From IMG/VR virus record IMGVR_UViG_2563367078_000003, positions 32,001-96,000 of that record: a stretch of DNA of 64,000 nucleotides; one strand, given 5' to 3'. This DNA comes from a virus (lineage: Duplodnaviria; Caudoviricetes). Position 1 is the first letter of the stretch. Every line of letters starts with the position of its first letter. Shown here one piece after another: positions 6,071-56,405 of this stretch. Both the position numbers and the translations under genes were made by a program. The notes under the pieces are model-generated. The model made no database searches. It had not been told where the DNA came from and saw nothing but the letters and a program-made list of their open reading frames with translations.

Positions 6071-6846
6071 GCGGTAATCTCCAATGGAATCAATAGATGT
6101 TTCTTCGACAAATGGTGTTGCACGTAATCGATATCCGGCGTGCGGAAGGTTTTGTAGTTCTCGGCGATGAACTGCGCGGACCGGCCTTTCGTCAGTGACG
6201 TGATCGTTCGGCGCAGCGCCCACGCGTATGCACCTCGAGCCGATCCGGTGTAGTCGTCCGGGATGACGATCCGCTCCAGCGCCGTGACGTACACCTCTTC
6301 GCGGAACAGCTGGACCTGTTTTTCGAACGGCATCGCCCAGACCTTTTGCATGTCCATCTGGACCGTCTTGCCGTCTTTCAAGCAGGATTCGTAGATCGGC
6401 CGGTCGCCGTAGGCCACACTGAGGTGAAGCGAATCGTGGTCGTATTTGCGTCGCACAGCATCGGAGAAGAACTCGTCGGACTCCTGGGTCAGATCGACCT
6501 TCTTCGTGCCGTGGCGGCGCTCCCAGGCCCCGTACAACATGTCGTGCAGCGGCTGGATTATCCGGCCTCCAGAGCCCTGCAGCCACACCAGATCCGACAT
6601 GTGCTTGCCCCAGCTGCCGTTGCGCAACTCCCAATAGCTGTGGCTGAGCTTGATGGTGTACATCTCGTCGAGCGTCGCGACCCGGATCTCGCCGTCTACC
6701 AGCCAATCGGCGAACGCCGGATCCCAGAACGCATCCTCGCCGTCGCCGGGGTGGTCGGTGAACACGTCGACGTCTTTCGGCTCCCGCCGGTCGAACCCCA
6801 GCAGTCCCAGCGCGGTCGAGCCGATGATCAGTTTGTAAACCACCAC
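6067..6846 (-). CDS. Pol-beta superfamily nucleotidyltransferase-like phage protein
   Basis: N-terminal LIIGSTAL...EPKDVDVF (hGS...DxD); also YTIKLSH, KH..D and YDHD.LH motifs. Confidence 0.65.
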   Translation of the reverse strand: MVVYKLIIGSTALGLLGFDRREPKDVDVFTDHPGDGEDAFWDPAFADWLVDGEIRVATLDEMYTIKLSHSYWELRNGSWGKHMSDLVWLQGSGGRIIQPLHDMLYGAWERRHGTKKVDLTQESDEFFSDAVRRKYDHDSLHLSVAYGDRPIYESCLKDGKTVQMDMQKVWAMPFEKQVQLFREEVYVTALERIVIPDDYTGSARGAYAWALRRTITSLTKGRSAQFIAENYKTFRTPDIDYVQHHLSKKHLLIPLEITA

Positions 6847-23863: not shown

Positions 23864-25036
23864 ATGGAATGGAACAACGAACTCGAAGCGCAGTATCAAC
23901 GCTACGCTGACGGTAAGTGGCGCAAAGATGGTCATGCTCGCGCGATGTGGAGGCGGCGTGCGGATTGGCTCGAAGCGCGCCAAAGGTGGCAGAAATCCAA
24001 AGATGTCGGAGATCGGTTCCGCGATGGAATGTTGGCGATTCGCGGTCACACACCTGAACGGGGATACCGGAAAGAGCAGCACCTCCGGACCAACGAAGGT
24101 TCTCGATTTCACGACGTTAGACATGCCGAGACCGGTGACGCTTTCGAGTACAAGTCGGGTGCTCTCGATTCTCGAAAATCCATGCCGCAGCTGCAAAAAG
24201 ATGAACGGCACCTGGCGGCCGATAGGTCGGTCGAGTGGGTCATCGTCGAAGGCGCTCGGATCGACAAAGATGTCAAGGCGAAAATCAAAGAGCTGAAAGA
24301 GCGTTACCCGGAGAATTTCCGCGTCGTGCAGGTCACGAAGGAACAGCTCCGAATGGCGCTCACCGTTGCAAAGCATCTGGAAAAGGCGAAGGAAAAGGCG
24401 GCACGGGCAGCACAGAAGGAGGCGCGGGAAGCCGCCGAGCGGGAACGCAAACGCCTTGCACCGAAGCGATTGGTCGAGAAGACGAAAGATCTGACGCGTG
24501 TAGTGGAGGTCAATCGCCAGGCAATCAAGCAGGCCGAGAAGGACGGAAAGGTCTTTCCGGCTCGCGAGCTGACCGAGTCGCACAAGGATGTTCGCCGGTC
24601 GCTGCGCAAGGTCAACAAAGAGGGGCGGAGGCAGGCGCACGAGCTTGTTGCCGGACTGGGGTTGAGCGAGAAGCAATCGCGGGAGATGGAGGCGTATCTC
24701 GCCGAACGCCGCGCCGCGAAGCTGGAGCCGACCGCCCAGGGTGTTCGGGAGATCGGCGCGGCAGCTCGCGCCCGTGAGGCGGAGGAACGAGAGATCGCGG
24801 CGGCGCAGAAGGAGGCTCGAGAGAAGGAGGCTCGGGATCGTCAATGGCGGGAGGAGCAGGCACGGGCGAAAGAGGCGCGAGAGCGGGCAGGGATCAATAT
24901 CCCGGGGATGGAAGCCGTCCTGGGGGGTGGGAGCGTGGCACCATCGCAGGAACTAGCCCGAGGGTCGACCGAATTGCGCCCTCAGAGCCGGAGTCCGGAA
25001 CGGGACAGTCGCGGCCTGAGCAGAGAACGGGACTGA
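23864..25036 (+). CDS. restriction-endonuclease-fold toxin-like protein with coiled coil and basic tail
   Basis: RFHD...AFEYKSG...QLQKD (PD-(D/E)XK); ends RSPERDSRGLSRERD. Confidence 0.6.
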   Translation: MEWNNELEAQYQRYADGKWRKDGHARAMWRRRADWLEARQRWQKSKDVGDRFRDGMLAIRGHTPERGYRKEQHLRTNEGSRFHDVRHAETGDAFEYKSGALDSRKSMPQLQKDERHLAADRSVEWVIVEGARIDKDVKAKIKELKERYPENFRVVQVTKEQLRMALTVAKHLEKAKEKAARAAQKEAREAAERERKRLAPKRLVEKTKDLTRVVEVNRQAIKQAEKDGKVFPARELTESHKDVRRSLRKVNKEGRRQAHELVAGLGLSEKQSREMEAYLAERRAAKLEPTAQGVREIGAAARAREAEEREIAAAQKEAREKEARDRQWREEQARAKEARERAGINIPGMEAVLGGGSVAPSQELARGSTELRPQSRSPERDSRGLSRERD

Positions 25037-25044
25037 AACGCAAA

Positions 25045-25085
25045 AAGACCCCCAGCTCCAGTTGGTAACTGAAACCGGGGGTCTT
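25045..25085. terminator. terminator hairpin between convergent units
   Basis: AAGACCCCC/GGGGGTCTT. Confidence 0.6.
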
Positions 25086-25571: not shown

Positions 25572-26099
25572 TTACCTCTTGTGGTTGAGAATGTGTTGGT
25601 GTGTGGCGTCCAGGCGCGAGCGCGCTTCAGCGGCCACGTACGGGTTCCGGACGACGGTGAGTGAGTTGTCCTGGGTCGTCTCGCCGGATGTGCTCCAGTT
25701 GGTCGAGCCGCCGATCACGTCCAGGCCGTCGACGACCACCATCTTGAGATGGACGATGTTGCCTCGCTCGCTTTTGCCGATCGCAATTGAGCTGGCGGGG
25801 AACACATCTCGCGCCAGGATGGTTTGTTCGTGCTTCCCGGCGGCTTGGCGGGAGTCGAGAGTCAGCTGAACGAACACGTGCTCGTCGTTGATCTTCTCGA
25901 GCAGCAGGTCCGCCAGCTCGTCGTCGTCGAACCCGAACATGCTGACCACCAGCGAATGACTCGCGGATTTGATCATCGATACCAGGACGCCGTGGATGTT
26001 GTCGACGGGCGCGTAGAAGGTCCGCTGGTCGGCGGGATAGCCTGCCGGGATCGGAGTCCGTTTGAAGCTGTCCAGCGCCGACAAGTCAGTCAGTGCCAT
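25572..26099 (-). CDS. phospholipase D/Nuc-family protein (single HKD motif)
   Basis: HLKMVVVDG....GGSTNWS. Confidence 0.85.
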
Positions 26100-26346
26100 T
26101 GGTTTTCTTTCGGTCAGGGGTGAAATCCGTTCCGTGCCAGCGGTATAGCGCGCGGATGTAGATGCAGGTGAGGGCCACCGACAAGGCGATCGTTCCGGGC
26201 TGGCCGGTGACAATCCCGTCGATGACCCACACCGATTGCGCGGCGATGCCGAACAGCCATCCTTTACGCGGGTTGTGCGACGATATCCAGCATTGAATGA
26301 TGCTGACCGCAGCGGTGATCCACGACCAGGCGGCCAATGCGGTCAT
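26086..26346 (-). CDS. small multi-pass membrane protein
   Basis: three hydrophobic segments, GWLFG...W. Confidence 0.6.
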
Positions 26347-26642
26347 CCGATGAACAGTTCCGGCGGCGCGGGGAAATTCGGATCGACTTCGAGTGCGGCT
26401 TTGTGCGCCTTCAAATCCCACGACTGGTGGGGATACAGCGCCTTTTTGAATTCTCGGACGTCACTTTCGAGCTGGTCGCACCGCGCGGTCACACTCGATA
26501 CCTGTGCCAGCGCATTTCGAGCCAGCTCGCTTGCCGTGTCGGCTTTGGTCTTTTTCCGATTAGCCCACGCCATGACGAGTGCTTGCAGCAAAGACCCTCC
26601 GGCGACAAGCGACAGAATAAGGTTTTCCAGGCCGACGCTCAT
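26343..26642 (-). CDS. membrane protein with coiled coil (lysis cassette)
   Basis: N-terminal transmembrane helix followed by a coiled coil. Confidence 0.7.
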   Translation of the reverse strand: MSVGLENLILSLVAGGSLLQALVMAWANRKKTKADTASELARNALAQVSSVTARCDQLESDVREFKKALYPHQSWDLKAHKAALEVDPNFPAPPELFIG

Positions 26643-26644
26643 GA

Positions 26645-26872
26645 TTACTTCCTCGCGGTCAGCTTCGCGACAGGGGTAACCTGCGAACGAATCAGCTCGG
26701 TAGCCGGGACACCCAGCACGATAGCGATCAGAGCGTCGATAGCGGCGGTGTCGGAGATTCCGAACTTCGCGAATACCACCGCGACAATACCGACGATAAT
26801 GGTGTACAGCACCGAACGAACCGGGTTCATCGCCCAGAGGTTCTTCAGGTAGCTGCCTATTGCTTTGAGCAT
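26645..26872 (-). CDS. holin
   Basis: 75 aa, two transmembrane helices, ends IRSQVTPV; downstream of the lysin. Confidence 0.75.
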   Translation of the reverse strand: MLKAIGSYLKNLWAMNPVRSVLYTIIVGIVAVVFAKFGISDTAAIDALIAIVLGVPATELIRSQVTPVAKLTARK

Positions 26873-26894
26873 TGCTGCCCTTTCTATTCAGTTG

Positions 26895-27650
26895 TTACAG
26901 CGCGGCGAGGTCACGCAGGAGGGCGGCCTTGTCGAAGTGCTCGGGGCTCTCGCCGTTGTGCAGGTATTCGTCACTGACGTAAGCGATTGCACGCATCGAC
27001 TGCTGCACGTAGAACGCCCAGGTCATCTTCTGCAGCTTGCCCCACGTCACGACCACGAAATAACCGTTGCGCCGAGCGACGACCGGGACGTAATGGCCGC
27101 CCATGACATCGCCGCCGAGGCGGAAACTCCACGGCTTGCCTGCGGCGAACTGCTCCTGCGCGATGTCCGTCACAGTGATGCCGATGCCAACCGCACCGAA
27201 AAGGTAAGTGGCAGCGGCCAATTCGTTGAGGTTGCCGGGCTCCAGCTCGAGATACGCCGCGATCTTGTGACGGTTACCGGCCGCGTCGATCATGCCGGTG
27301 TTCTTCCGATACTCCGCCGCCGTCGCCATGTCGGTGCCCTGGTCGGAGGTCGGGTCCGCCGGGTTGAAGCCGGTGATCGCCGAGTAGTCCGCCAGCGCGG
27401 TTTCGGTAGTGAATTCCGGAATCGGGTTGCCCGCCGCTGCATTCCAGAGCATCGCTTCGTGGTCGCTACCCGCGATGACGCAGTCGCCGACCTCGTCGTT
27501 GCCCAGCATGCCCCAGTCGGCGATCAGCTGTTCGTGGCCGAAGCTGCCGGGGATCTTGGGGAGTGCGGAGGTCTTCAGATAGCTCCCCAGCTTCAGCGGA
27601 AACGCCTCGTCGGGGGAATCATTGAGACCGAGCTTGTATTCAGTTGTCAC
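26895..27650 (-). CDS. papain-like cysteine peptidase-fold protein
   Basis: WGMLGND..GDCVIAG, GGHYV, VVTWG. Confidence 0.65.
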   Translation of the reverse strand: MTTEYKLGLNDSPDEAFPLKLGSYLKTSALPKIPGSFGHEQLIADWGMLGNDEVGDCVIAGSDHEAMLWNAAAGNPIPEFTTETALADYSAITGFNPADPTSDQGTDMATAAEYRKNTGMIDAAGNRHKIAAYLELEPGNLNELAAATYLFGAVGIGITVTDIAQEQFAAGKPWSFRLGGDVMGGHYVPVVARRNGYFVVVTWGKLQKMTWAFYVQQSMRAIAYVSDEYLHNGESPEHFDKAALLRDLAAL

Positions 27651-31878: not shown

Positions 31879-32354
31879 GCGTCACCGCCCAGGACTTCTT
31901 CGGCCGTGGTGCCTCGCTGGATCTTGACTTGCAATTCGTCCCAGGTGGTTGCTGCGGCGACGGGGCCACGGTCCGGCGGAGGGTCGGTGATATGCCCGAC
32001 GTTGCGAAGTTCCTGGTGGATCCATTCGCGTTCCTGCGTGGTCATCCCGCGCACATTCGGCAGCACCAGCGGTTCGACTTCTTCCGCGTCCATCGGCACC
32101 CACCGCGCCAGACCGTTCAGGAAGCTGGGGTTGCCCCGGGGCGGGAGACGCAATTTCTTCGTCTGGAGCTTGCTGTGGTGCCGGAAGCCGAGTTCGAAAA
32201 GGTGCTTCGAGATGACCTTCGCGGTATTCAGCTGGATGGGCATGGTTTCGGTGTCGCCCATCTGAATCTGCGTGAGCGCCCACAGGAAATGCTCGGTCGG
32301 GTCCTTCGGGTCACACTCGTCGTACTGGGGGAATCGTTTGTTCGTCGATGCCAT
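31875..32354 (-). CDS. minor tail-associated protein (DUF2744-like)
   Basis: CDP.DP.EHFLWAL...SKHLFELGFRH....Q. Confidence 0.75.
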   Translation of the reverse strand: MASTNKRFPQYDECDPKDPTEHFLWALTQIQMGDTETMPIQLNTAKVISKHLFELGFRHHSKLQTKKLRLPPRGNPSFLNGLARWVPMDAEEVEPLVLPNVRGMTTQEREWIHQELRNVGHITDPPPDRGPVAAATTWDELQVKIQRGTTAEEVLGGDA

Positions 32355-46302: not shown

Positions 46303-49008
46303 TTACGCCTGGCCCTGAAGGACCTTGAAAGCGTTCGGAACCAGAACGACCGAGTTGTTCATCCAGATCGCATAAATACCGCGCTGGCCGGTCGGACGCT
46401 GGTTCGAACCGAATACCTGGGGGATCAGCTCGACACTCATGCCGATACGGTCCACAATCAGGAACTGCTGGAAATCACCAAAGATCAGGAACAGGTCGCC
46501 GGTAGCGTGGGTCGACGCCATGACCGAGGACTCCAGAGCTGGGTAACCCAGCAGCTCCGAAGGCATTCCCGCGCCAATGCGCTGCCACAGCTGAGCGCCA
46601 CCGTACTGATCGAACTGGCGAATCTTATTGTAATTCGCGCGGTGAGCGATAAACTTGGCGTTCGCATTACGCCAGCGCGGATCGAGGCTTTCCTCGAGGT
46701 GGTAAACATCAGCGGCAGTGAATGCCTGACCCGGAGTCGCGGCCACGTAGGAACCGCCCGGCAGAGTGCCGATGACGCCGCCCGCGTTGGTGCCGGTGCC
46801 ATCCCCCAGCATGAACGAGTTCGCCTCTTCGCGACCCTTGGCGTCAACCAGAGCGCGGGTGATCTCGGAACGCACCTGCGACCAAGACTCAGCCAATTCG
46901 TACGAGAACGGAATGAAGCCAGCGACACGGTTGGTCTTCACGGTCGGCTGGGTCAGGGAGAAGCTGTTGTCCGACGCTTCCGACGCCTCAGCAGAACGGG
47001 TGACGCTGGTGCCCGCAGACACGACGCCCATCCATTCCTTGCCGACGATCTGCTCGACGCGGGAAACGCTCCGCAGCGGATCGATGACGCCAGCACTCGT
47101 AAGGATTACAGTAGGATCGAGTTCGAACGGCACAGCATACCCGCCGCTACCGTCAGTTCCCAAAGACAGAGCACGATATTCCTCGCCGGACAGCATCTGC
47201 GGCGTACCCGCAGCAACCGTCTTCGACCAGGCGCGCTCATACAAGCTCGAGCCGGTCCGCAGCATCCGATGAGCCAGGGTGGCGTTCTCGTCGTCGACGG
47301 TGTCCAGCAGCGCCTGTGCGCTCGTCTGAGCGTCCTCCTTGGCAACCATGCGGGTGTAGTTGGCGCGCTCGATTGCACGGGCGGCGTTGTCCCGGACCAG
47401 CTGCAGGTAGTCGTCCTCGTTGTGCGACGCCTGGCGGATCTCGTTCAGGTCGTAGATGTTCTCCGGCTTGCGGCTACCGGTCGGAGCAGACGAGAACGAA
47501 CGCTCGGTGCGGCCCTCCCGCTCGCCCTCGGCCAGCTCGTCCATCCGCTTCAGAATCGCGGCGATACGAGCCTCCACCTTCGGCCGCTCATCGCGGAGTT
47601 CGGTGTTCTCGGTCTCGACGTCGGCAGGCAGCTCAGCGTCACGGAATTCGACATTGATCTCGGCAACGCGGGCATCGATCTCCGCCAGGCGCTGCCGCAA
47701 CTCGGTAAGAGTCACAGGGGTTTTCCTCTTTACGGGAGCCTCATCGGCTCGGGTTTCTTTCTTTTCGGACTCCCGTGCGCGCAAGGTGCCTTCATCGGCG
47801 GCGTTGTCGTCTTCGGGGTTAATGGCGTCGGTCAGGGTGTCGCGTTGTTCGACGGCGCTGTCCTCAGCGGATTTGGATTCGATGTCAGCGCCGAACTTCT
47901 TCGCTGCGGCCCTGATCTTCGATTTGATTGCCTGCAATTCATCGGGGCTGTAGCCCTTCTGGTTTTTCGGCATGTTTATGTACGACCACGCGGCCCTGAC
48001 GTGAGCCTTCGTGTCGATCGGGTATTTGCCGTTCTTCGGATCTGCGTAAGCGACGTCGCCGTAAGGCTTTTTGTCATCGCTGGCGCGGCCGTCCGGCATA
48101 GTCGGGGAATGCGTCATACAGACGCCGTTGGAAAAGGAATGCTCTACGCCGTCTTCATCGACATACGTATCGACCTCGGCGTCGACATCCTTTGTGTCGT
48201 CATCGCCATCGGTGTCGCCGTCGAGTGCGGTTTCCGGCGGATCGGTCGGGCCGTCGCGGAGTTCTTTCGCCGTCTCGATCGCCTTGTCGACATCCGCCAT
48301 ATGAATGTGGATCTCGGTCTTCGGAGGTTCGCTGCGGACGGTTTCATCGGCCTTCGGAGCGGCTTCCAGCTCGGCCATCGTTCGGCGGTATTCATCGACA
48401 ATCGCCTGGCGCTGTTCGTCGGTGATCTCGTCCATCGAACGGACGCCAACCGAAGTGCCTTCGTAAGCCGGATAAATCACAGGCCCGGCTTCCATCAGCT
48501 TGACCTCGCGGATAGTCCGCTGCAATGGGCCGCGATCTCCGGCATCCCACAGGAGCCTGTTCAGCTCATTGCCGCCAACGCTCCGCCCCTGAGAGTCGGA
48601 CCAGTCCTGGCGAGTGACAGTGAAAGTGAACGACATTCCGCTGATGGCCTGCGCTTCAATGGCCTGGCGGATCGGCTCGACGAGGTCGTTTTCAAAAAGC
48701 CGTGCCTCTACATACAAGCCGTGGTCGTCTTCGCGCATCTCGGTGAAGACGCCGATCGGGACGCCACCAGTGCGGGAATCACGGCCGTGCGCGAACTGGC
48801 AAATAGGAAGCTTGCCCTCTTGGAGGGTCTTTTTGAAGCAGCCAGGAGCCAAGCGCTCGGTAAACGCGCCTTCGAAACTATTGATTTGCGTGTCTTGTCC
48901 AAAAACAGCCGCGTAGCCGCACAACGTTCTCTTATCACTGGGAGCATCACCGGTTGCGGCTAGCGTGAAATCGACGTCGCGAGTTATGATTCTATTGGCT
49001 GGAGGCAT
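46303..49008 (-). CDS. HK97-type prohead protease - major capsid protein fusion
   Basis: GYAAVF, H, SGMSF.F, E..PV.YPAY; central PYGDV.YADP...YPIDT..HVRAAWSYI (DUF6582-like); GGYAVP, FGDF. Confidence 0.9.
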   Translation of the reverse strand: MPPANRIITRDVDFTLAATGDAPSDKRTLCGYAAVFGQDTQINSFEGAFTERLAPGCFKKTLQEGKLPICQFAHGRDSRTGGVPIGVFTEMREDDHGLYVEARLFENDLVEPIRQAIEAQAISGMSFTFTVTRQDWSDSQGRSVGGNELNRLLWDAGDRGPLQRTIREVKLMEAGPVIYPAYEGTSVGVRSMDEITDEQRQAIVDEYRRTMAELEAAPKADETVRSEPPKTEIHIHMADVDKAIETAKELRDGPTDPPETALDGDTDGDDDTKDVDAEVDTYVDEDGVEHSFSNGVCMTHSPTMPDGRASDDKKPYGDVAYADPKNGKYPIDTKAHVRAAWSYINMPKNQKGYSPDELQAIKSKIRAAAKKFGADIESKSAEDSAVEQRDTLTDAINPEDDNAADEGTLRARESEKKETRADEAPVKRKTPVTLTELRQRLAEIDARVAEINVEFRDAELPADVETENTELRDERPKVEARIAAILKRMDELAEGEREGRTERSFSSAPTGSRKPENIYDLNEIRQASHNEDDYLQLVRDNAARAIERANYTRMVAKEDAQTSAQALLDTVDDENATLAHRMLRTGSSLYERAWSKTVAAGTPQMLSGEEYRALSLGTDGSGGYAVPFELDPTVILTSAGVIDPLRSVSRVEQIVGKEWMGVVSAGTSVTRSAEASEASDNSFSLTQPTVKTNRVAGFIPFSYELAESWSQVRSEITRALVDAKGREEANSFMLGDGTGTNAGGVIGTLPGGSYVAATPGQAFTAADVYHLEESLDPRWRNANAKFIAHRANYNKIRQFDQYGGAQLWQRIGAGMPSELLGYPALESSVMASTHATGDLFLIFGDFQQFLIVDRIGMSVELIPQVFGSNQRPTGQRGIYAIWMNNSVVLVPNAFKVLQGQA

Positions 49009-49610: not shown

Positions 49611-51137
49611 TTATTGCTGCTTTGATTGCCCTTGCTGCGGGCTTTTCTTTGCGGGCTTTACGGGCTTGACCGGTTCTGGACCGTCTGCTTTGTTCGGGTC
49701 CGCAGCCAATTGCTGATCGCGAGGAGGCAGCGTTTCGGTCGGGGCGTCGCCGGAGTAGTCGGTCATATGGCCGAGGCCGGGAGCCATCAACTGGACCGAG
49801 AAAAGGCCGCTGTGCTCGAGCAGAGTCCAGTCCTTTTCGATCAGCGCCTTCACGACCGACTCTGGCGTGTAGCCTTCTTGGACGAGCCGCGCGATAGTCA
49901 TTGCCTCTGTCTGCTGCAGCTGAGCGACGATTTCGCGGTCCTCTTGCAAGAACGAGATATCGCGGTCGTCGTACCAGAGGCGGCAGTTCGCAGGGACGGT
50001 GATCAGCGGCGCGTACGCGGCACACAAATCACGCCACAGCGGCCGGATCGTGCCGTTCGCGAACTGATCAGCGGCTGCCTGGTAGTTGCCCTCATTGAGA
50101 GCGGAACCGCGCATGCCTTCCGTCAGGCCGACAACGGTCGGAGGAACCCGCGCGGCGGCGGCGATGCGCAATTCGGCGATGGAAGTCAGCTTCGAGAAGT
50201 CGATTTCCTGGATTTTCGACCCGAGCGGGGAAACCGTAGCGCCGCCACCGAGATACAGCGTCTCGCCAGCGTGTGACAAACCGTGCTTGGATTGGTTCAT
50301 CATCGTCATGAACTCGTGGAATTGCTCGGAGGTCACGGTCGGATCGAACGACACCAGCAAATTCGGCTGCGCGGAGTTGTTGAAGTAGTTGACTTTGTAG
50401 GTCGATGCGGCTTCATCGGAGATGACTTCTTTGATGATCGGAGTCATCCACGACATGCCGCGATACTGCGCGAGAGGATCCGGAATGGGAGCCCAGTGCG
50501 CGACAATGCCGTTCGAGCCGTCAGCGGGGAACAATTCCCACTTCGTTTTGTCGTCAGTATTGCCGGGCTTGTAGATGTACCCCTGGATATCGGAGTGAAG
50601 CGCTTCCTCGGGGTTCTTCGTCAGAACGATCGACACCCAATCCGGGCGCAACCTGCGCAATCGAGGACCGTCAGGGCCGTCTTCGCGCAGCACGTAATGG
50701 TTGCCGCAGAGGTCGACATCTTGTATCGCGTGCGCGAGGAGCTGAGAAGTGGTGCCGTTGGGCCATGGTGTGCGCAGCAGCCTGATCGACCGTTCGTTTT
50801 CGTCGGTGAAGTCTCCGGGGCGGCCTTTGCTCATTTTCTGGAACGCGAACCGGACTTCGGTGAAAACCATTTGCCGGGCGAGGCAGCACGCGAACACGAC
50901 GCCGCTGGACTTGTATCCGGCGTTGACGTACCCGGCGAAGTCGTTGGGGATTGTTTCGTGGCGCTTATTACTGGAGGCATCGTAGGTTACGAACGGAAAA
51001 GCACCGCCGAAGCCGCCTGCGATCGGATAGGCGCTGCCTTGGAAGGTGAAGTATTCGGCGAGGGCGTTTTGATCGACGACCGGGAAGCCTTGATCTCGCT
51101 TTTCCGGGCGGCGCAGGAGAGACCAGAGATTGGGCAT
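49611..51137 (-). CDS. portal protein (HK97 family)
   Basis: VFAC, GNHY, RGMS, YFNNSAQP, IAAAARVPPTVVG. Confidence 0.9.
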   Translation of the reverse strand: MPNLWSLLRRPEKRDQGFPVVDQNALAEYFTFQGSAYPIAGGFGGAFPFVTYDASSNKRHETIPNDFAGYVNAGYKSSGVVFACCLARQMVFTEVRFAFQKMSKGRPGDFTDENERSIRLLRTPWPNGTTSQLLAHAIQDVDLCGNHYVLREDGPDGPRLRRLRPDWVSIVLTKNPEEALHSDIQGYIYKPGNTDDKTKWELFPADGSNGIVAHWAPIPDPLAQYRGMSWMTPIIKEVISDEAASTYKVNYFNNSAQPNLLVSFDPTVTSEQFHEFMTMMNQSKHGLSHAGETLYLGGGATVSPLGSKIQEIDFSKLTSIAELRIAAAARVPPTVVGLTEGMRGSALNEGNYQAAADQFANGTIRPLWRDLCAAYAPLITVPANCRLWYDDRDISFLQEDREIVAQLQQTEAMTIARLVQEGYTPESVVKALIEKDWTLLEHSGLFSVQLMAPGLGHMTDYSGDAPTETLPPRDQQLAADPNKADGPEPVKPVKPAKKSPQQGQSKQQ

Positions 51138-51307: not shown

Positions 51308-52894
51308 TCAACCGCGATAGAACCAGATATTCGCCGGTTTGGTGAAAATGTGCTTTTTGTAGCCGAAATAGGCGAGTGTCATCGCGGTCAGCGGGGTAAT
51401 GTCGGCCGAGGATTCGATCTTGTCCCACGCCCACAGCTCTTGAAGTTTGCGGGTGTTCGCGTTCGCGACGGCGATATCGAGAGGAGCTTGGTCGATGTGC
51501 GTGAACTCGCCTTTTTCCTTGTTGCCCTTCAGCACGATCGAGTCTTTGAAGTCGCCGCAGCCTTGCGCGTATTCGCGGGTGGTGACGGTTTCGACTTTGA
51601 CGCCGCGTGATTCGAGTTCGGGAATCAGTCGACCGGCCGGAGTAGCGGGATTCACGACAACGAAAGCCGGTTTGTTGGCCTTCCAGATGTCGACGACGCG
51701 CTCAACAGCCCATTTGATACCGGGGCGATAGTCGAAAAGCTTTTCTTCTTCGATGCCGGTGATTTCGCCGTGGATCTGCTTGTCTTCGTTCGCGCCTACG
51801 GCGGTGATGCACGTCCAGTCGGCGTCGGGCGAGGAGTCCAGAGCGAGGCAGAACTTCCCTTGCAGCTGCGACAGCGCGTTACGCCGGTCATCCCACGCGG
51901 TTTTCGAGATGACACGCCAGCCACCGTCCTCTGCGGGCCAATCACCTACGGACAGACGCTCTTTCGCGAAGCCGGCGGGCGACATCGCCTTCTTCTCGGT
52001 CTCGCGGATGTACTCCTCGGAGATCCGAATTCCCAAGGCGGGGTTGGCTTTCGCCCACGTGCGGGGGTCGTTGGCGTCGTCGTGGTCTTCGCAGTCCGGC
52101 GGGCAGTACGACGTGCACAGTTCGACGCTCCACTCCATCCAGCCGAAGCGGACTTCGCGGGCTTCCTTGGCGATCACCTTCATGGCGCGGTTGCGGGCCC
52201 GGCCGAAGTGCTCGGCTTCTGCGGTACCGGCGGACCCGGCGTAGATGATCTGGTGATTCGGCTGCGCGGATACCGTGGGCATGGAGGCTTCGATGACCGA
52301 GCTGTCGAGGTTTTTCATCGCCTCGTCGTAGACAACCAGCGGAGCCGAGAACCCGCGTCCCGTGCTGCCCGACCTCGCCTTGAAGATCAACTTCTGGCCG
52401 CTGCGGAGATAGATGCCTTCTTGGCCGTGACCGGCTTTGATCTGCAGGACTTCGCTGCGGAGGTCGGGGGTGTCCTCGATCAGTCGGCGGATGCGCTCGA
52501 AGTGCTTCTGCGACGTGTCGAATAGGTGCGCCGAGTGGATGATCTCCTTCTCGCCGAACAAAAACAGACCAGCCAGTTCGCGAGCTTCGAGGATTCCGCC
52601 TTTTCCGTTCTGTCTGGCTACCACAAGCCCGAATTCGGCTGCCGCCCACTGGTTTTCGTAGCGGCCGTTGACCTCGTCCCAGTACTCTTCGTCGCGGATC
52701 GCGAGCATGTTCTCCAGGACGAGGCACTGCCACGGATCGAGTTCCAGGCCAGCGACTCGCGCGAGATCAATCGCCTCGGAAGCGCGGCTGTCGACCGCCT
52801 TGTACTCTGGGGGCAGCCTTCGTGCCGAGTCCGGAATCGTGTGATGGCTCGGGTACTGGTCGCCGATCAGCGGCGCGGTTACGTATGGAGGCAA
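51308..52894 (-). CDS. terL: terminase large subunit
   Basis: LDPWQ, Walker A VARQNGKG, RGFS..VVYDEA, W.KANPALG, DITPL. Confidence 0.95.
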   Translation of the reverse strand: MPPYVTAPLIGDQYPSHHTIPDSARRLPPEYKAVDSRASEAIDLARVAGLELDPWQCLVLENMLAIRDEEYWDEVNGRYENQWAAAEFGLVVARQNGKGGILEARELAGLFLFGEKEIIHSAHLFDTSQKHFERIRRLIEDTPDLRSEVLQIKAGHGQEGIYLRSGQKLIFKARSGSTGRGFSAPLVVYDEAMKNLDSSVIEASMPTVSAQPNHQIIYAGSAGTAEAEHFGRARNRAMKVIAKEAREVRFGWMEWSVELCTSYCPPDCEDHDDANDPRTWAKANPALGIRISEEYIRETEKKAMSPAGFAKERLSVGDWPAEDGGWRVISKTAWDDRRNALSQLQGKFCLALDSSPDADWTCITAVGANEDKQIHGEITGIEEEKLFDYRPGIKWAVERVVDIWKANKPAFVVVNPATPAGRLIPELESRGVKVETVTTREYAQGCGDFKDSIVLKGNKEKGEFTHIDQAPLDIAVANANTRKLQELWAWDKIESSADITPLTAMTLAYFGYKKHIFTKPANIWFYRG

Positions 52895-54401: not shown

Positions 54402-55094
54402 CTAATACAGATTCGACCGCGTGACCGAAGTACTGAGTCGGTTATCTTGATGAATGATGGTCGGGCTGGGAATAGCGACTGTGAGCGCTGTATAGGTGCC
54501 CGCGAAGGTGACGCCGGTCCATGCTCCGGGAGTCTGACTGGATGCGATGGCGTTGAGTTCGGCGCTGGCAATGAATGCGTCGGTCGTGACGCCAGAAGTG
54601 CCCGTGTTAGCCGATTGGTAATTGCTCCAGCCACTGGGAGCGCCGGTCGGGTCGTAGAAGGTCGGCCGCGTTCCGGCATCGATGATCAACCACTGATAGC
54701 TGATATTGCCGAGGGGTGGCGTAAGAGCTGGAGAGGTGGGCGATGTCGAGCTGCCGGTTGCCGATGCGACCGCGATTCCGCCGCCGGGCCATGCACCGGT
54801 CAATCGTAGGGACGCCCAGGCCGCCTGCACCGACGCGCTCGAGGTGACCGTCAACGAGCTGACCGGGCCCTGCTCTCCGGTGAAGAGGGTGATGTAGATG
54901 CCGCTGGCCGCGCCCCAGGTACCTGCGATGCTCCAGCCCGCCGAGGACGTGGAAAGTGTTGCGGCCGATGGGGTTGTCACGAAGACGAGATAGAGGTCAC
55001 CGGTATTGGCGCTGGTGTTGGGGAGCGTGACGGAGTACGAAGTTCCTGCGCTCGAGGTGTTTCCGGTACTGCGCTGGGCGACGGCGATTGTCAC
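54402..55094 (-). CDS. virion-type beta protein
   Basis: Ser/Thr-rich; GDL.LVFV, APSGW. Confidence 0.7.
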   Translation of the reverse strand: MTIAVAQRSTGNTSSAGTSYSVTLPNTSANTGDLYLVFVTTPSAATLSTSSAGWSIAGTWGAASGIYITLFTGEQGPVSSLTVTSSASVQAAWASLRLTGAWPGGGIAVASATGSSTSPTSPALTPPLGNISYQWLIIDAGTRPTFYDPTGAPSGWSNYQSANTGTSGVTTDAFIASAELNAIASSQTPGAWTGVTFAGTYTALTVAIPSPTIIHQDNRLSTSVTRSNLY

Positions 55095-55114
55095 TGCATC
55101 ACCACCCGAGGACG

Positions 55115-55132
55115 ATCGTTAGCTTTGCTAAA
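55115..55132. promoter_or_regulatory. 18-bp repeat, copy 2
   Basis: ATCGTTAGCTTTGCTAAA, identical to 32727-32744. Confidence 0.65.
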
Positions 55133-55134
55133 CA

Positions 55135-55814
55135 CCAGACTTGCCCGCGCGGTGGTTGTGGATTACACCGGGAGAGAAGGGAAGTGGAGGGAGCGCAGGG
55201 GTACCCCGGTACTGCGAAGCACGGATACACCCTTGACGCGATTACACCGGTCGCTTCGGTCGCTACGGTCGCTTGGTATGTACGCAGGCGCGGGGATTAT
55301 TCGGCCTGCCGGGACTGGGATACTGCACAGAGTCCGGCCACCGGCGCAGAGCACGGGGAACCCGGATGCCGCCAGATGATCCGCCCAGCTGCCGCCAGGT
55401 CGCTCCGAGTCCGCCTTTACGCGCAACTCTGTGTCATCGGATGGTTGCAGCAGCCCCTCTGACGGGCGACGACTGCGCGGGCAAGGCGCATCACCCGCGA
55501 CGGTGCCTACGGGCGCAACGGCCAAGGGGTGAGTGGCTGATCAGCCAGAATCGTGAGGTAGGATGTGGTCCTACGGCGCGGATCTGCTATACCCAGGTTC
55601 TCGCCCAGGCCCCGGTTGATGCTGTGAACATCTTCCGGGGCTGACTTGTATCTGGGACAGTAGCACAGCGATCTCGAGGTGCACGTGAACCCGGCGGCCT
55701 CGCGATTGAGGTTCGTCCGCCCTACCGTGTATCATGGTGTGCGCGGGACGCATTAGCGTCTCTGAAGTGAACCCGGCAGCCATCCGGACGGTTGGTGAGC
55801 CGGGTTTCGCGCAT
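55135..55814 (+). ncRNA. candidate ~680-nt large structured RNA, antisense to the late operon
   Basis: long-range stem 55140-55153/55472-55485 plus many hairpins; non-Watson-Crick pairs are G-U on the + strand. Confidence 0.6.
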
Positions 55815-56405
55815 CTAGGACAGGGTAAGTGTCGCAGCGAGCGACCAGATAGCCCCACTGGATTTCGTTCCGAGGCTTTGGATCTTGTGATTCAGCAATA
55901 CCGGCGAGGTGCCGACAGAGGCGAGAGTCGTTCCAGCGGTGATAGTTCCGGACGCGACCGCCCAGCCCCATTCCTGCCAGGCGAAGTTCGCATTGCCCGA
56001 CTGGTACGTACACGTGATATTGATCGTGCCGTTGGACTGCGTCGGAGAACCTGAGTCGGCTTGCTGGTAATACGCATTCGCCGTACCGTCCGCGCCGAGC
56101 GCAGTATCACCAATCACCGCAGTGGTCGTGGAGTTACCAACGCCGACAACCGCATCCGCGTGAGCCAGTGGGGTTCCGCCGCCACCGATGATCAGATTGG
56201 TGATTCGGTTAAGGCCGACCGTGGTCAACAGGTTGCCGGGAACGTCGACAATGTCGTCCGGGACCAGCAGCCCGATAGATTCCAGATGCCGGAGGTGATA
56301 TCCGGTGGGCTCGTGCCCGAACTGGTTTGTCAGTCGCTCGACGGTCTCAGGCTCGTACTTGATGACCTTCGCCGTCATATTCCATTTGATGCCGTCGCCA
56401 GCCAT
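55815..56405 (-). CDS. virion-type protein (resembles tail-fibre N-terminal/baseplate domains)
   Basis: NLLTTVGL...VGVG...ANFAWQEWG...LLNHK..SLGTK.SG..W. Confidence 0.7.
   Translation of the reverse strand: MAGDGIKWNMTAKVIKYEPETVERLTNQFGHEPTGYHLRHLESIGLLVPDDIVDVPGNLLTTVGLNRITNLIIGGGGTPLAHADAVVGVGNSTTTAVIGDTALGADGTANAYYQQADSGSPTQSNGTINITCTYQSGNANFAWQEWGWAVASGTITAGTTLASVGTSPVLLNHKIQSLGTKSSGAIWSLAATLTLS

Follow-up and report, generated by a model that had tools for sequence, protein, structure and literature searches.

A conserved three-domain non-coding RNA in the late-gene arm of an actinobacterial prophage and its likely kinship with the RNA-based origins of Cluster A mycobacteriophages

The window analyzed here is a stretch of 64,000 nucleotides from an IMG/VR virus record (IMGVR_UViG_2563367078_000003, positions 32,001 to 96,000), which corresponds to C99:50237-114236 in a 10.4-Mb actinobacterial genome (66.8% GC). 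The window lies in a low-GC island (~59% GC) that extends from about C99:20 kb to 130 kb and is bordered by flanks of host-like GC content. A tyrosine integrase (C99:18378-18881) marks the left edge of the island and is the sole recombinase near it on the contig, on which no serine recombinase was found, and TetR and AraC genes mark the right edge. A search of the island (C99:~20-130 kb) for ParA (PF01656) returned no match, with the nearest located at C99:394180. At ~110 kb, and with one tyrosine integrase at its left edge, the island is much longer than a single typical siphovirus prophage, and it may be composite.

Leftwards from ~57.8 kb, the minus strand of the window carries a series of small ORFs, a gap, three further ORFs and the gene for the large terminase (51308-52894), which is followed on the same strand by the genes for the portal (49611-51137) and a protease-capsid fusion (46303-49008) and, beyond the latter, by an ORF of 2106 aa. 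From ~60.7 kb the direction of the genes is rightwards. Families of initiators, primases or polymerases were not recognized among 15 different early-region ORFs, of which seven were tested in both libraries; most early-region ORFs have no family at all, and a hidden initiator among them is possible. The only recognizable DNA-handling gene among the early-region ORFs tested encodes a HerA-like helicase/ATPase (PF05872, E 4.6e-125; C99:121793-123238).

The gap within the late-gene arm spans 720 bp (55095-55814) between minus-strand ORFs at 54402-55094 and 55815-56405. The only ORFs within it are short (84-124 aa), overlap and occur on both strands. Comparison of these ORFs with PHROG and Pfam found no family, and the two on the minus strand matched 0 PHROG families. 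Among 21 members of the RNA family described below, no reading frame is open throughout, and in 12 of the 21 all six frames of the core contain stop codons. The gap is non-coding, as had been proposed when a first reading, made from the sequence alone (the sequence-only reading), found no credible ORF there; the conserved coding frame that it named as evidence against an RNA is absent from the 21 members. We also considered a split gene or an intron, which we rejected because the ORF at 55815-56405 spans positions 5-168 of 168 of its PHROG profile and is therefore full length. No tRNA or tmRNA was found in the window.

The gap houses two unrelated elements, a minus-strand RNA gene and a separate hairpin. 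This arrangement differs from the single element of ~680 nt that was first envisaged, as the right-hand ~140 nt (55672-55814) are not conserved in the closest relatives and bear the separate hairpin. Every stem and repeat listed in the sequence-only reading is present, including the GCCCCGG hairpin (55609-55641), the three GGTCGCT copies (55249-55276), which are part of a family-wide (CGACC)n stretch, and the pairs of GATTACACCGG (at 55161 and 55240) and GTGAACCCGGC (at 55685 and 55767). The GCCCCGG and GTAGGA/TCCTAC hairpins are real, conserved hairpins of the RNA leader, whereas GGGACGC/GCGTCTC and GTGAACCCGGC/GCCGGGTTTCGC fall in the non-conserved right-hand part. The proposed 14-bp long-range stem exists as an inverted repeat (55140-55156/55469-55485; 17 nt, 88% complementary), but probably stands outside the fold, because its 3' arm is used by the covarying hairpin H2 (55474-55490) and its 5' arm (55140-55156) falls beyond the conserved unit and has no conserved counterpart in L022 and L017, the two other loci of the window's subgroup.

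The separate hairpin, which we call element B (55764-55814, ~50 nt), directly follows the stop codon of the ORF at 55815-56405. Element B does not belong to the RNA family and lacks conservation in both L022 and L017; its own genome has a single copy. It is 83-98% identical in 28 actinobacterial plasmid records (15 from Rhodococcus, nine from Mycobacterium, two from Mycolicibacterium, and one each from Gordonia and Tsukamurella), and blastn against phage records revealed a match between Gordonia phage Zitch and 55764-55803. Copies occur at L005:2686-2736, L006:3001-3048, L007:3001-3072 and L003:2501-2539. In an alignment of nine copies the core is almost invariant, which leaves no informative covariation. 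In four of the six annotated plasmid loci that were inspected, element B lies beyond a minus-strand CDS, at 0-20 nt from its 3' end; the distance is 119 nt in a fifth, and the gene that element B follows is usually a hypothetical one of ~175 aa. Two of the adjacent CDSs are 41% identical to each other, have no family in Pfam, and are unrelated to the ORF of the window.

The RNA gene matches no family in Rfam. Across the 64-kb window there were 0 Rfam matches at the gathering threshold, which was the first check that the sequence-only reading had proposed, and at E<=10 the segment 54900-56000 gave only sX13, a trypanosomatid snoRNA and speF (E 0.6-2.9), all far below their thresholds and attributable to chance. 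Rfam 15 lacks a model for the family, and in nine related loci Rfam detected nothing over the RNA and only a tRNA in L016. This tRNA gene (6336-6408) is about 1.4 kb upstream of the RNA in a Rhodococcus element. The covariance models for large RNAs and for group I and II introns in Rfam had no match. GOLLD and ROOL were named early as comparators to which the RNA could not be assigned, and neither model matched even at E<=10. Like GOLLD and ROOL, the RNA is large, multi-domain and phage-borne and has no known protein partner, but its hosts differ (it occurs in phages of Mycobacteriales) and a function has been tied experimentally to its Cluster A members.

Relatives were found among actinobacteriophages. 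In AnnaL29, Loser, Refuge and Steamy, a blastn search of phage records matched 55431-55517 to non-coding sequence that immediately precedes parA. A search with the AnnaL29 region matched 128 phage records (126 from Mycobacterium and two from Gordonia), which include Gladiator, LadyBird and Alma as well as Gordonia phage Daredevil, which is not a Cluster A phage. In multiple alignments, the sequences run collinearly and in one orientation for ~370 nt, with blocks of identity between variable hairpins, and the core (55160-55530) can be aligned with 20 relatives. In bacterial genomes represented by one genome per species, a degenerate pattern of the most conserved block identified seven loci (one Corynebacterium MAG, one Aeromicrobium MAG, two Nocardia and three Rhodococcus), and the same pattern found 23 viral contigs. 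Domain 1, the most conserved part, served for a covariance model, which detected one copy of the RNA in its own genome, none in eight genomes of the same genus, and copies in four of 150 further genomes sampled from the same GTDB family. Three versions of the RNA query had no match in the PLSDB plasmids.

These relatives connect the RNA to a replication region that has been defined experimentally. According to Wetzel et al. (2020; PMC7157519), 105 of 110 parABS Cluster A phages lack RepA, and in lysogens of Alma and LadyBird the region just upstream of parA is transcribed in reverse into an RNA that matches no ORF. Deletion of Alma 26463-26959 or LadyBird 25900-26299 left lytic growth normal and rendered lysogens unstable, and a segment of ~600 bp left of parA, taken from RedRock, LadyBird, Gladiator, Alma or Et2Brutus, was enough for plasmid replication in M. 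smegmatis, even when stop codons were placed in the overlapping ORFs (PMC7157519). The domain 1 model (R1), which scores 85.1 bits in the window, scores 73.7-88.5 bits in Alma, LadyBird, Gladiator and AnnaL29, and its matches fall within the published deletions of Alma (26738-26829) and LadyBird (26194-26266) and within the published functional segment of Gladiator (24744-24813, inside 24464-25062) (PMC7157519). Judged by the homologous sequence and the collinear order of the domains, the core is homologous to the non-coding RNA origin of the non-RepA parABS Cluster A mycobacteriophages. The two also share the absence of a conserved ORF, in agreement with PMC7157519. The search for homologues that had been suggested in actinophages and Nocardia prophages therefore yielded relatives in both, although they belong to a family already known from Cluster A, and the idea of a new class of large phage RNA stands only insofar as this is a large, multi-domain RNA without an Rfam family, since it is a homologue of an origin that has already been studied.

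We describe the RNA as a ~490-nt unit that runs on the minus strand from ~55651 to ~55163, with its ends placed where conservation stops, and that comprises a 5' leader, domains 1 to 3 and a pyrimidine-rich tail. For the analysis of the fold, the core was divided into three parts, because MAFFT put some helices one column out of register. RNAalifold applied to the MAFFT alignments on both strands returned similar energies and poor structures, and a column-run helix finder was noisy; given this noise, which also affected a duplex tally, we used anchored sub-alignments and covariance models. Domain 1 (55446-55519; model R1) contains the hairpins H1 (55492-55515), H2 (55474-55490, with the loop CUUGCCC) and H3 (55453-55467). 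In a plain MAFFT alignment of 21 sequences (A6), 98.9% of its 378 cells were paired, compared with 86.0% in shuffles and 34-49% in slid controls, and 0 of 500 shuffles equaled this percentage. Compensatory changes were evident in seven of 18 pairs in this alignment and in 10 of 18 when 26 sequences were aligned (A10).

Domain 2 (55315-55438; model R2) is a junction in which the long helix H5 (55426-55433 with 55326-55333) encloses H6 (55401-55423), which closes a conserved loop of 17 nt, and H7 (55385-55398). The model matched the window over its full length (25.9 bits, E 6.5e-4), and the junction was recovered in most of the 21 members when each was folded separately, with helices of differing sequence; the window's own minimum free energy (MFE) fold departs from it. 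Among 15 hits (A9), an alignment that was fitted to the model and hence leans towards it, 94.5% of cells were paired, compared with 61.2% in shuffles, none of 500 shuffles reached this value, and all 22 pairs showed compensatory change. Domain 3 (55195-55325; model R3, 128.3 bits in the window) has two hairpins, H8 (55284-55309, loop AAUAAUCCC) and, on the 3' side, H11 (55206-55224), with three copies of GCGACC between them (55249-55273). Its cells were 96.5% paired in a MAFFT alignment of nine sequences (A11) and 95.8% paired in 23 model-aligned sequences (A12), where 14 of 16 pairs had compensatory changes and 0 of 500 shuffles matched. Slid controls over the three domains gave 29-52% paired cells.

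Together, the alignments show a conserved three-domain secondary structure with covariation, and covariation among homologues, which the sequence-only reading had put forward as a check, is present in all three domains. Folding energy, which was expected to be better than that of dinucleotide shuffles, was not; single-sequence z-scores were at chance level on both strands (-0.72 minus, +0.72 plus), so that the evidence for structure is the covariation and not the energy. Downstream of domain 3 is a C/U-rich tail (55170-55193), and a direct repeat, CCGGUGUAAUC, occurs at 55240-55250 and 55161-55171, where it flanks H11 and the tail. By eye, the repeat pair is specific to each lineage, with CCGAGGUG present twice in L017 and CGAGAG-like copies in Cluster A, which suggests that the two copies may be constrained together. 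A DnaA-box-like AATCCACAA seen by eye beside the 3' repeat was dropped, as it is not conserved in L022 or L017.

We also evaluated which strand carries the structure. In the minus sense, the cells of conserved helices held G·U over A·C by 38:0 (A6) and 9:0 (A11) in unfitted alignments and by 46:1, 19:7 and 37:1 in model-fitted alignments, which indicates that the RNA is on the minus strand. This result reverses the original argument from wobble positions, which had read G-U on the plus strand and placed the RNA there, antisense to the structural mRNA; the RNA instead has the same sense as the structural genes. A strand-neutral duplex tally of G·U and A·C gave 89:46 with terminal pairs and 19:10 for internal pairs (p = 0.14), and RNAalifold energies did not separate the strands. 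The plus strand of the window aligns with the forward strand of the phages, in which the published homologue RNA runs opposite to parA, so the structured strand of the window is the strand reported to be transcribed in the homologues (PMC7157519). Among 13 non-Cluster-A loci examined, the minus-sense RNA is co-oriented with adjacent ORFs in 11, with L012 convergent and L018 unclear, and L016, L030 and L033 are close kin. We consider it very likely that the RNA belongs to this family and is encoded by the minus strand.

That the functional molecule is instead a plus-strand transcript, antisense to the late mRNA, appears highly improbable, although three observations point in that direction. The hairpin of element B is stabler in the plus sense (-28.1 compared with -21.2 kcal/mol); the sole sigma-70-like site in our scan is on the plus strand (55706-55735) but faces away from the RNA core; and a forward-strand TGnTAnnnT motif occurs in Cluster A loci, where forward transcription beside the core is plausible. 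The last of these was observed about 30 nt from domain 1, antisense to the origin RNA, in seven of nine Cluster A loci (L002, L004, L010, L011, L019, L025 and L034); by eye, a GC hairpin with a T-tract comes after the motif. The window has no counterpart of the motif, which could mark a short antisense RNA or the promoter of parA. The ratios of G·U to A·C given above (38:0, 9:0, 46:1 and 37:1), the published RNA-seq direction of the homologues (PMC7157519) and the plus-sense z-score of +0.72 speak for the minus strand, and the window has no plus-strand TGnTAnnnT closer than 330 nt to domain 1.

The 5' edge of the minus-strand unit suggests that it has a promoter of its own. Conservation between the window, L022 and L017, which form the window-type subgroup, extends from about 55671 to about 55163, and at its 5' edge is an extended -10 motif, TGCTACTGT (TGnTAnnnT; 55665-55657, minus strand). 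In the alignment of the three sequences (A4), the T, G, T, A and T of the motif are invariant and the n positions vary, and a same-sense TGnTAnnnT 146-155 nt upstream of domain 1 occurs only in these three. Transcription would be predicted to start at about 55651-55649. Two features are specific to the subgroup, namely a hairpin inserted into domain 2 (55336-55382) and a 5' leader with three hairpins (55534-55645), which RNAalifold places at 55604-55645 (L1, with the GCCCCGG core), 55558-55574 (L3, GUAGGA/UCCUAC) and 55534-55547 (L4). Of the 36 leader pairs predicted from the three sequences, four have compensatory changes, and the apical pair of L3 is A-U, G-C and C-G in turn.

Covariation alone cannot separate RNA from single-stranded DNA, and a G·T wobble is tolerated in DNA hairpins; the pairing could therefore act in single-stranded DNA, as an origin structure of the single-strand-initiation or primosome-assembly type, which would suit homologues that function in replication (PMC7157519). 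We judge this very unlikely, in view of the same-sense RNA detected in lysogens of the homologues (PMC7157519) and the conserved promoter at the 5' edge of the window's unit. That unit is conserved over ~370-490 nt and has multi-domain junctions. To our knowledge, known ssi signals are far smaller.

The setting of the RNA in the window differs from that in Cluster A. The Cluster A origin is central and opposite to the genes, with parA directly downstream in all seven Cluster A records whose annotation was inspected, whereas the RNA of the window is located in the late-gene arm, upstream of the terminase and co-oriented with the genes, has the extra leader and domain 2 hairpin, and is not adjacent to parABS but is borne by an integrated element with a tyrosine integrase at the edge of the island. 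Among the other non-Cluster-A carriers, four of five have an integrase and none of five has ParA. Daredevil has the RNA in a gap of 1.2 kb that is bounded by an HNH endonuclease gene on one side and by the gene preceding the terminase on the other, and the genes lie on the opposite strand, as in the window. The position of the RNA varies: in the window, Daredevil and L016 it is found upstream of the terminase, in L022 it is flanked by tail genes, and in L017 its neighbor is a DUF4143 ATPase gene. A tblastn search with 10 window proteins against all loci revealed no shared flanking genes other than a weak TerL match in L020. These varied positions in differing carriers indicate that the RNA behaves as a self-contained cassette. 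Some carriers are small Rhodococcus elements of ~20 kb with a tyrosine integrase, which are possibly compact phages or satellites. In L016, the RNA is about 2.6 kb upstream of a TerL-like gene, and the IMG/VR records L020 and L030 measure ~20.7-20.9 kb and have direct terminal repeats.

Based on the homologues, the explanation that we favor, with moderate confidence, is that the window encodes a ~490-nt structured non-coding RNA gene of the Cluster A origin family, with its own promoter, that serves here as a protein-independent start of replication in cis. The RNA, or its transcription, would start DNA replication in cis with host enzymes and would not need a phage initiator protein, and in an integrated prophage its purpose would be to replicate the genome after induction or excision rather than to maintain it like a plasmid. 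Transcription in lysogens, a requirement for stable extrachromosomal lysogeny and support of plasmid replication are reported for the Cluster A homologues (PMC7157519), and the replication assays were performed with Cluster A members in M. smegmatis. As the carrier is integrated and no ParA accompanies the RNA, the replication role at the window locus is extended from those homologues by analogy.

The same features leave room for a reading in which the family and strand are as described but the RNA, in integrating phages, is not an origin and instead is a moron-type RNA that acts in regulation, in interference with the host or a competing phage, or by binding a host protein, with autonomous replication being peculiar to the Cluster A parABS lineage. 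We regard this as possible but doubtful. Given that an integrase is present and ParA is absent outside Cluster A (four of five and none of five carriers, respectively, with the window alike), an origin for extrachromosomal maintenance is not obviously needed there. A moron would also fit the different places of the RNA in different genomes, its own promoter in the window subgroup, its absence from PLSDB plasmids, and invariant loops and a junction that are more elaborate than a primer seems to need. However, replication is the only function known from experiment for any member (PMC7157519), we found no alternative partner or target, and no replication initiator was recognized in the early region of the prophage.

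If the RNA is an origin, its mode of action invites comparison with ColE1, which Wetzel et al. (PMC7157519) offered as an analogy in proposing that replication is probably RNA-initiated; the likeness to RNA II consists of a protein-free origin and a long structured transcript. The RNA of the window has no sequence or Rfam relationship to ColE1. The scale is similar to that of RNA II, with the window promoter roughly 490 nt upstream of the end of conservation. ColE1 has the antisense RNA I, whereas in the window the 330 nt upstream of domain 1 contain no plus-strand TGnTAnnnT, and the 3' tail of the window RNA is pyrimidine-rich where that of ColE1 is G-rich. An r(pyrimidine)·d(purine) hybrid is the weakest kind, and therefore a persistent R-loop of the ColE1 style is not favored at the tail.

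The kind of element, an experimentally defined non-coding origin RNA, was already known from what PMC7157519 reports. In the literature search that paper was the only related one, no structural description of the origin RNA was found, and the phrase 'secondary structure' has 0 occurrences in its text. Three aspects are new, namely the three-domain fold and its conservation, the occurrence of the family outside Cluster A and apart from parABS, and the position and promoter of the window's member. The 'RNA-based origin' of a mycobacterial prophage is in use as a plasmid tool, and concrete helices, invariant loops and a promoter are now available as targets for mutation. Without parABS, members of the family occur in a Gordonia phage outside Cluster A and in integrated prophages of Nocardia, Rhodococcus, Corynebacterium and Aeromicrobium, which raises the question of whether such RNAs are general phage origins or something else. 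We suggest, speculatively, that they may form a widespread uncatalogued class of actinobacteriophage RNAs of ~350-500 nt and three domains that act as protein-independent replication initiators beyond Cluster A. Such a class would cover integrating prophages, Daredevil and the ~20-kb integrase-bearing elements with terminal repeats, and the invariant loops and junction would then imply that a folded RNA, rather than a plain primer, recruits the replication machinery of the host.
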